A stretch of 64,000 nt of DNA, taken from Trypanosoma brucei (Eukaryota). A program made the position numbers and the translations under genes. How positions within the stretch are numbered: position 1 is the stretch's first letter; every line of letters starts with the position of its first letter. The stretch lies in assembly GCA_000002445.1 (NCBI GenBank), contig AL929603.2:384001-448000 (forward strand). Reading direction: 5' to 3'. Shown here piece by piece: positions 41,787-44,240 of the stretch. Under the pieces are notes generated by a model, which had not been told where the DNA came from, made no database searches, and saw only the letters and a list, made by a program, of their open reading frames with translations.

Positions 41787-44240
41787 ATGGGGCTACATTG
41801 GCCCCTGGCGCGTAGTTCCAACTGGTGCCACATGCGGGCGTTGAGTAACGAACATTTGCGGCGCCGGGTTGGCGCCGCCGTGCGCAGCATTGCCTCAACG
41901 GCACCCTGTTTTGCTTTAGAACGGGTTGAGGTGGCGCATTCGCATGCTTATTCCCGCCGAGGCGTGACAGTGGGCTTTACGTCATCTTCGTCCCCTAGCG
42001 GCAAAACTGGCAGTGGTGGGCTCTCGCCAGCATCACAGTCGTTGCATTCATCGTCATCTTTTGATGCGAGTAATGGGGATGTGCTAGCCAATTACGTCAA
42101 CTTCGTTGCAGATGACGCTACCGGACCTGCTGCGACCAAAGAGAACGGTGCGCAGCCAATGCGTAGTTTGAGGTCCGCCTCTGCTGTCGAAAATCTTCTG
42201 TTTACCGACGCAGCGAAGAACTATTGCCGTCTCTGCATGGAGGAGGTGCAGGTGACGCCCAAGGCGCATATTAGCACTCCTTACCGTGGGAGTCACACAA
42301 ATCACACCTGTCGGGAGGTCGTACTTGACTCTCTCGCTTTGCTTGCCATTCGGGGGTACCCTATCGATGATGTTTACTTCGTGTGGGCGGACACGCTCTA
42401 TCAATCATCTGTCTTTCAACGCATCCCAGAGCTCGTCTCCCCGCGTTGGACTGTTGATAAGCGGAGTGAAGTATTGGCTAAGATTCTATTTATGTTAAAA
42501 GACATGGGCGTTATCGATATTTCATTAGCCGCCCAGGCACCCGATTTGTTTGATAACACGGCACAACAAGTGCATCACCGCCGGCGTGTGGCGTTCGAAA
42601 GATTAGAATACATCGGTGATAACTCGTGGGGAAACCATCTTTCCAATCGTATGATGCTCCTATTTCCCGATCGCCAGTGGACTTACAGCCAAAACGCCTA
42701 CACCTTCAACTGCTTTCGTGATGCGTGCGAGATGAATGTGACGTTGGAATTTATGTTCGATACTCTACGTGTGGGGGAGTTACTTCCACCTGGTGTACGG
42801 GAAAAATTGGGAACGGGGAAGATAAAAGCAGATGTGGTGGAAGCTGTTATTGGTGAGTTGCACGTGACATTGTGGGGGCTTGAGCCGCAGCTGTATGATT
42901 CTGTGTGCTTTGTTGAAATTAACGGCGTGGGAGAGGCCCGTCTGGCAGCGTTGGTGCAGCACTGTCTCACAGAAATATATGACCTTATCGTGCTTTCTTA
43001 CGTTCAGGAACTCAGTGGATCTGCGGTTCCGTTAGCAAAGCAGATAGCTGCCGATCGCATATGGAACAGCGTGTATCCTCCCGTACGAAAGGCGAAGGAC
43101 CGTGCACCTGGGGGACGAAAAAGTCGATCTACTGTTGTGAACGTAGTCGGTGTAGGGGAGGTACGGCAACTTCCGTCACTTCCTTCGCTCTTTCCTGTAG
43201 CGTCAAAGCGACCCACACGGGCTCCACATCCACTTCGCCGACTTAGGAAGTTAGGGGAGATTCCTGAAGAAACTGTGTGTGCTGGTACGAACAAGGATGT
43301 TTTTGTCCATCTGATCGAGAGTTATGAACGTCTAGATATGTTGGATGACTCTCTCCTTCCCACATTGAATATGCGACGGCTCCAAGACGTTCAATTCTCA
43401 AAGCTGAAGCGACAGTTGGTTCCCTCACTCTCCCCTGCCGCGTTGGAAGAATTGCACAACTGTAAAGAGTTGGACGCTGAATCGGTTACACCGCACAAGG
43501 TTGGCGACAAGGAGGTTGCGACGGATGAACGGGTGCTGGACTTAGAAGAGGTTTATTTCCGTGATAAGTATTTTGACCTCTTCCCAACTCCGTTGCCGAA
43601 TGAAGTTGTCACAAAAGAGGGAGACTGTGACAAAAGACAAAGCGGTGCCTCCACGAGCAGGGCGGTCATCATATCGCTGCCACGAGGGTTTGACGGGGGT
43701 CGACCCTGCAACAGGGCGCAACTCCACATGGCTCGAAACACAATTTATCCTTCACTGACTGAAAGACCGGCCCATAGTCCCACTGCTGGTATTACGAAGG
43801 GTGATCGTGTGTGTCTCTTTTCTCTTTCAGTCTATGTGCCTCCAGATACGAAAAGGCCTTCTGCGGGCGTAGTGACAGACAAGAACCTTCACTTTGGTGA
43901 ATTTGCATTTCATGGCGTGCGGATCAAGGGAATTGAATGTGCCTCTGAACCAGAATGTATTAGCAGGCGAAGCAATGCTCCTGGTTCCGATGTTGGGACC
44001 TCACTTAACCGCAGTTCATGGAAAGAAGGAGGTGACAATTCATGTGGAACACTAACTGTTGAGGATGGTACCGGAGAGAACTCGGTAGTTGGGGAAGATG
44101 GCGATACTGGTGTGAATGGCGGGGAAGGTAAGGCTGAAGATGCAACAGGCAAACACCTACTGCGAGCCAAATGGTGTCGTGAAAATCCCTTCTTTCCACG
44201 GGCGTCGCTACCTCTTTTAGGCATCTCGGTTGGTGCGTGA
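41787..44240 (+). CDS. RNase III-domain protein with U1-type C2H2 zinc finger and mitochondrial presequence (editosome KREN/KREPB-like or mRPN1-like endonuclease)
   Basis: [15 protein letters not shown] matches the RNase III signature ERLEFLGDA, and [11 protein letters not shown] matches DxxEAxIGAxY. The U1-like zinc finger is [28 protein letters not shown]. The N-terminus [22 protein letters not shown] is Arg-rich and presequence-like. The protein is 817 aa. Confidence 0.65.

Follow-up and report, generated by a model that had tools for sequence, protein, structure and literature searches.

The gene for the RNA-editing endonuclease KREN1 (TbMP90) in a 64,000-nucleotide stretch of Trypanosoma brucei DNA

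The KREN1 locus

The window analysed here is a whole stretch of 64,000 nucleotides of Trypanosoma brucei DNA (NCBI GenBank assembly GCA_000002445.1, contig AL929603.2, forward-strand positions 384,001 to 448,000), and the gene under study occupies positions 41787..44240 of its plus strand, where the listing of open reading frames (ORFs) gives, with exactly these coordinates, an ATG-to-stop frame of 817 codons. This ORF is almost certainly the nuclear gene for the editing endonuclease KREN1 (also named KREPB1, TbMP90 or REN1; Tb927.1.1690) of a T. brucei-group trypanosome. A frame this long, with the conservation described below, is, judged from its sequence, far beyond chance. The coding sequence and the main parts of the protein are the following.

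41787..44240, plus strand: complete coding sequence assigned to KREN1 (TbMP90/KREPB1), an ATG-initiated ORF of 817 amino acids plus stop
42225..42305, plus strand: U1-like (matrin-type) C2H2 zinc finger, residues 147-173 (C147, C150, H161, H170, H173)
42597..42863, plus strand: RNase III catalytic domain, residues 271-359, matching Pfam PF00636
42597..42623, plus strand: RNase III signature ERLEYIGDN, residues 271-279, aligned to E. coli E38, E41, G44 and D45 and invariant in orthologues
42831..42863, plus strand: second catalytic motif, residues 349-359, with D349 and E352 aligned to E. coli D114 and E117 and invariant in orthologues
42927..43073, plus strand: long helix after the RNase III domain (RNase III-associated motif, RAM), residues 381-429, with a predicted local distance difference test (pLDDT) score of 75-91 and a block identity of 0.65-0.78
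43074..44237, plus strand: C-terminal extension, residues 430-817, made of variable linkers, predicted to be disordered, and conserved islands

Identity of the encoded protein

A phmmer search of all PDB chains placed the window protein against chain C of entry 9dei, named MP90, with a score of 1881 bits and residues 1-817 aligned to 1-818. The entry, solved by cryo-electron microscopy (cryo-EM), shows RNA-editing catalytic complex 1 (RECC1) of T. brucei mitochondria, the U-deletion complex, and also contains KREPB8 (chain B), MP44 and MP46. Relative to 9dei_C, the window protein lacks one Ser of the Ser run at residues 65-69 and carries V471 and G638 where the chain has Ala and Ser, respectively; all three differences fall outside the catalytic core and are, as far as the two sequences tell, strain-level polymorphism only. 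The closest entry found by BLASTP in a large protein database is “Mitochondrial protein 90 [T. brucei equiperdum]”, at 100% identity; one Ser indel and three substitutions separate it from the window protein, and three of these four differences recur in the comparison with 9dei_C. Orthologues named “RNA editing complex protein MP90” were matched in T. vivax, T. cruzi, T. rangeli, T. theileri, Phytomonas, Leptomonas, Porcisia and Leishmania, with identities of 58-62% in other Trypanosoma species (MP90 of T. vivax, T. cruzi and T. rangeli) and of 33-38% in Leishmania, Leptomonas and Phytomonas. A contig of NCBI assembly GCA_001457755.2, 99.6% identical to the window DNA, codes for an identical 817-residue protein and has matching neighbouring genes.

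A table in a review of 2026 equates KREN1 with N1, REN1, TbMP90 and Tb927.1.1690 (PMC12936278). The near-identity to 9dei_C, the MP90 names of the orthologues and this equation together identify the gene as KREN1. The gene is thus one that is already known in detail, solved structure included, and nothing in the identification is new: genetic and biochemical work on KREN1 goes back to 2005, and 2026 saw the release of a cryo-EM structure of its complex. Its presence bears out that the window belongs to a nuclear chromosome of the T. brucei group.

A protein of similar architecture, with a zinc finger, an RNase III domain that keeps its catalytic residues and a RAM, would also be expected if the gene encoded KREN2 or KREN3, the editing endonucleases for insertion sites, and PDB chain 9z0h_C, named MP61, was indeed reached by phmmer (E 1.2e-9 over residues 138-408) and by the orthologue profile (E 8.2e-11). 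That reading is nonetheless hardly worth entertaining, given that the MP61 match amounts to 40 bits and covers only the core, against 1881 bits over the full length for MP90, that all named orthologues are MP90 and that the C-terminal 400 residues are without a counterpart in MP61; the near-identity to the MP90 of the RECC1 structure refutes it. MP61 may otherwise be KREN2, a pairing opposed to that of the review and bearing only on how the MP61 match is named. In the review table, KREN2 is TbMP67 and KREN3 is TbMP61 (PMC12936278).

RNase III domain and catalytic residues

The sole Pfam family detected in KREN1 is Ribonuclease_3 (a single domain, residues 271-359, E 6.4e-5, 24.1 bits), which is matched by all 13 aligned orthologues, with a best E-value of 1.1e-7. 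When a profile of the orthologue domains was aligned to E. coli RNase III by hhalign, a probability of 92.5% was obtained, and E271, E274, D278, D349 and E352 were paired with E. coli E38, E41, D45, D114 and E117, respectively, while G277 was aligned with the universally conserved glycine (E. coli G44). All six residues are invariant across the 13-sequence trypanosomatid alignment, and E271, E274 and D278 are, by this pairing, metal-binding or catalytic residues.

Several RNase III-like proteins of the editing complexes (KREPB4, KREPB5, KREPB6, KREPB7 and KREPB8) offer another reading, in which the window protein would be a non-catalytic pseudoenzyme acting as a structural partner only. With the five acidic catalytic positions and the signature glycine present and invariant, this is scarcely credible, and the B proteins are described as being without catalytic residues and N1-N3 as having them (PMC12936278).

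Some caveats attach to the assignment. The Pfam score of KREN1 taken alone (24.1 bits) lies under the curated cut-off of 27 bits. The PDB searches with phmmer and with the orthologue profile reached only MP90 and MP61 and no classical RNase III, and for this reason hhalign to E. coli RNase III was used instead; the E. coli sequence for that alignment was entered by hand, and the known catalytic numbering E38/E41/D45/D114/E117 agreed with it. The AlphaFold2 models are shallow, with 13 sequences and a mean pLDDT of 47.9 for the full-length model, and 32 sequences and a mean pLDDT of 54 for the C-terminal one. No evidence contradicting the KREN1 identification was met.

Zinc finger and post-nuclease helix

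The zinc finger lies N-terminal to the RNase III domain and has the pattern CRLC-x10-H-x8-H-x2-H, in which C147, C150, H161, H170 and H173 are invariant in the orthologue alignment. In the full-length AlphaFold2 model, the zinc finger and the RNase III helices form, together with linker helices and the helix 381-429, a confident core of approximately residues 125-430. The region after the nuclease domain was formerly called a double-stranded-RNA-binding motif (dsRBM) and later a PUF motif (PMC4274635), and has since been reinterpreted as the RAM, defined as a long helix C-terminal to the nuclease domain, which is what the KREN1 helix of residues 381-429 is (PMC9508840).

An RNase III domain with intact catalytic residues would equally suit mRPN1, which processes guide RNAs and has a U1-like zinc finger as well (PMC4274635), or a nuclear RNase III of the Dicer or Rnt1 type, a reading that the identity to MP90 refutes and that can be given practically no weight.

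A preliminary description of this DNA had proposed an RNase III endonuclease of the editosome type, carrying a U1-like C2H2 finger, RNase III motifs with their catalytic Glu and Asp kept, and an Arg-rich N-terminus. The proposal was borne out, and the 1881-bit match to MP90 narrows it from a KREN-like protein to KREN1: the finger is present at residues 147-173, both motifs are found at residues 271-279 and 349-359, the catalytic positions are upheld by hhalign and by their invariance in 13 orthologues, and the composition of the N-terminus (6 Arg and 1 acidic residue in 40 amino acids) agrees. The BLASTP and profile comparison that it had suggested returned MP90 proteins as best matches, not Dicer or Rnt1.

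Start region and N-terminus

The following features surround the start of the ORF.

41690..41786, plus strand: pyrimidine-rich tract, with approximately 72% C/T over 41690-41769, and AG dinucleotides after it (41772-3, 41781-2 and 41785-6)
41787..41912, plus strand: candidate mitochondrial targeting presequence of approximately 42 residues, Arg-rich, acid-poor and poorly conserved
41913..41945, plus strand: conserved motif, residues 43-53, directly after the putative presequence, seen in the orthologue alignment (block identity 0.56 over residues 41-60)

The stretch 41690..41786 is likely the trans-splice acceptor region just 5' of the ATG, as its analysis in the light of trypanosome mRNA processing in general suggests. 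The T. vivax orthologue also starts with MGL and the polypyrimidine/AG acceptor adjoins Met1 directly; Met1 was therefore kept as the start, and the alternative start at Met16 was rejected.

The first 40 residues of KREN1 contain 6 Arg, no Asp and 1 Glu, with the first acidic residue at position 22, and residues 19-42 form an amphipathic stretch with a hydrophobic moment of 0.37-0.50, against a protein mean of 0.22. Block identity across orthologues is 0.14-0.18 over the N-terminal 42 or so residues, and residues 8-35 were modelled by AlphaFold2 as a helix of low confidence. This composition is consistent with a putative mitochondrial presequence, and the mitochondrial localisation of MP90 has been established by its isolation from mitochondrial editosomes (PMC12936278).

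The C-terminal extension

Within residues 430-817, four conserved segments were delimited from the orthologue alignment.

43164..43355, plus strand: island 1, residues 460-523, LPxLPxLF...P...HPLR...T...T..D.F...S, a small helical module in the alignment and the C-terminal model
43542..43592, plus strand: island 2, residues 586-602, EVYFRDxxFxLxP, with Y590, R592, D593 and L598 invariant and a block identity of 0.55
43749..43910, plus strand: island 3, residues 655-708, starting with YPxL and holding a near-invariant PSAGVVTD-x-NL core in the alignment
44172..44195, plus strand: C-terminal W-x-x-E-N-P-F/Y-F motif, residues 796-803, at alignment columns ~1295-1305

In island 1, the residues L462, P463, L468, P476, L483, T496, T501, D504, F506 and S512 are invariant, and a pLDDT of 74-86 was obtained over residues 464-523 when AlphaFold2 was run on residues 434-817. 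The invariant residues of island 3 are L657, F678, S681, V684, P691, G694, V695 and D698, and its block of residues 681-700 has an identity of 0.75, matching the level of the RNase III domain. The terminal motif is kept in Trypanosoma and Phytomonas orthologues and is preceded by a modelled helix of low confidence at residues 783-799. Elsewhere the extension is variable: in the orthologues of Leishmania and Leptomonas it is lengthened by insertions of more than 100 residues, pLDDT is below 50 over most of residues 432-817 in the full-length model, and in the C-terminal model it is 52-72 over residues 634-703 and low elsewhere outside residues 464-523.

This half of the protein had been called low-complexity in the preliminary description, a view that did not hold up, as its Shannon entropy per 40-residue block (3.4-4.0 bits) is in the same range as that of the N-terminal half and conserved islands are present. 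The same description had raised a dsRBM or a PUF fold for it, and neither was found: no dsrm, PUF or other further Pfam family was detected in KREN1 or in 12 orthologues, no alpha-beta-beta-beta-alpha or PUF-repeat fold appears in the full-length or C-terminal AlphaFold2 models, and a Foldseek search of the C-terminal model against the PDB gave 9dei_C as the sole match (233 columns, 78% identity, low TM-score). A dsRBM or PUF domain in the C-terminal half was thus rejected on Pfam, AlphaFold2 and Foldseek, and the literature now has the RAM in its place.

Chain 9dei_C has 521 modelled residues, against approximately 305 in the core, so part of the region outside the core is ordered in RECC1, though it is predicted to be disordered alone. 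Similarity to the paralogue MP61 stops at residue 408, and the extension is therefore without a detectable counterpart in MP61, the sole paralogue compared. The extension may be a set of anchoring segments that fold upon binding. That its islands are undescribed docking modules, tethering KREN1 to RECC1-specific partners such as KREX1, is quite improbable; if true, such docking would couple cleavage to U removal and would explain why deletion follows KREN1 cleavage. Given the 521 MP90 residues modelled in 9dei, the contacts of the islands have very probably been seen and described already.

Role of KREN1 in U-deletion editing

Identity, domain content and residue conservation were obtained here, and the heterodimer, the deletion-site specificity and the essentiality are taken from the literature. 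KREN1 is described as the single catalytic endonuclease of RECC1, the complex of deletion editing, to which KREPB8 and the U-specific exonuclease (exoUase) KREX1 are unique (PMC12936278, PMC9508840), and only N1-N3 keep their catalytic residues (PMC12936278). The occurrence of a near-identical protein as chain C of the RECC1 structure 9dei, with KREPB8 as chain B, agrees with this membership. N1 and B8 form an RNase III heterodimer with one active site, which is why cleavage is proposed to be limited to the mRNA strand (PMC12936278, PMC9508840), and the zinc fingers have been modelled on both sides of the duplex, replacing the double-stranded-RNA-binding domains (dsRBDs) of other RNase III enzymes (PMC9508840). 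According to the literature, isolated KREN1 editosomes cut deletion sites, cells with KREN1 only show almost exclusively deletion events and, for the endonucleases as a class, their loss or the mutation of catalytic residues puts an end to editing in vivo and to cleavage in vitro.

Taken together, these data suggest the following course of events. KREN1 would enter the mitochondrion by means of its basic N-terminal presequence and would be assembled as the single catalytic endonuclease of the U-deletion RECC1, of approximately 20S. Its RNase III domain would pair with that of KREPB8, which is catalytically dead, giving a heterodimer with a single active site in which E271, E274, D278, D349 and E352 would act with Mg2+, and at deletion editing sites this site would nick the mRNA/guide-RNA duplex in its pre-mRNA strand only, after which KREX1/KREX2 would trim the surplus uridines and a ligase would reseal the mRNA. 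The U1C-like zinc fingers of KREN1 and KREPB8 would flank the duplex, standing in for the dsRBD of classical RNase III, the long RAM helix after the nuclease domain would brace the dimer, and the C-terminal extension of residues 430-817 most likely threads over other RECC1 subunits, which would anchor the nuclease. U-deletion RNA editing in the mitochondria of trypanosomes requires KREN1, a parasite-specific enzyme that has been considered as a drug target.

Genomic surroundings in the window

All ORFs of at least 200 amino acids from 1710 to 56790 lie on the plus strand, the arrangement expected of a polycistronic unit in trypanosomes. The neighbours of KREN1 are unrelated to it in function, with an Elf1 zinc-ribbon protein encoded upstream and an AATF/Che1 protein downstream. 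Two small minus-strand ORFs inside KREN1, at 42084..42404 and 43910..44224, were found to be without support and are regarded as shadow ORFs. No Rfam family and no tRNA was found anywhere in the 64,000 nucleotides.

Two genes downstream of KREN1 lies a large plus-strand ORF at 46931..52303, of 1790 amino acids from a TTG start and of 1786 amino acids in another gene call, with no Pfam match on record. At the far end, at least 42 copies of a 123-bp unit, 99% identical, form a tandem repeat that runs from 58786 to position 64000 and past the window end; it sits in a plus-strand frame that is open from approximately 57000 over more than 2200 codons to the end of the window and encodes a 41-residue acidic repeat, EQQTEAIMDEAPCAPEDFLAEESQQHTARSEADIDEEQQPQ. 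The repeat gives rise to an AT skew of approximately 0.49 and a guanine-plus-cytosine (GC) content of 0.58 at 58786..64000. A minus-strand ORF of 1793 amino acids (58585..63966), the translation of which is a Cys/Ser-rich repeat, overlaps it and is most likely a shadow ORF of the plus-strand repeat gene, because all other long ORFs of the window are on the plus strand. GC content is low, at 0.31-0.38, over 1..2000 and 6001..10000, against approximately 0.48-0.50 in the rest of the window, and these stretches partly overlap or flank an ORF of 1742 amino acids at 1710..6938.

Comparison with known systems

The window protein and the KREN1 of PDB 9dei chain C have their zinc finger, their RNase III motifs, the RAM helix and the C-terminal extension in common. 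KREN2 and KREN3 each pair with a partner carrying a dead RNase III domain (KREPB7 or KREPB6) in a RECC isoform of their own (PMC12936278, PMC9508840), and according to the literature they cut insertion sites, while KREN1 cuts deletion sites. As represented by 9z0h chain C (MP61), they are distant from KREN1 in sequence, with 40-44 bits over the core, and MP61 is much shorter (538 amino acids) and shows no similarity to KREN1 residues 430-817. KREPB8, KREPB4 (MP46) and KREPB5 (MP44) are pseudoenzyme partners or scaffolds without the catalytic acidic residues, which the window protein has.

Classical bacterial RNase III (E. coli Rnc, Aquifex aeolicus) and yeast Rnt1p have in common with KREN1 the RNase III fold, the signature motif and the acidic two-metal site. 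The classical enzyme is a homodimer with two active sites that cuts both strands and binds RNA through a C-terminal dsRBD, whereas in KREN1 no dsRBD was found and a zinc finger is present instead, and the enzyme works as a heterodimer that cuts the mRNA strand only (PMC12936278, PMC9508840).
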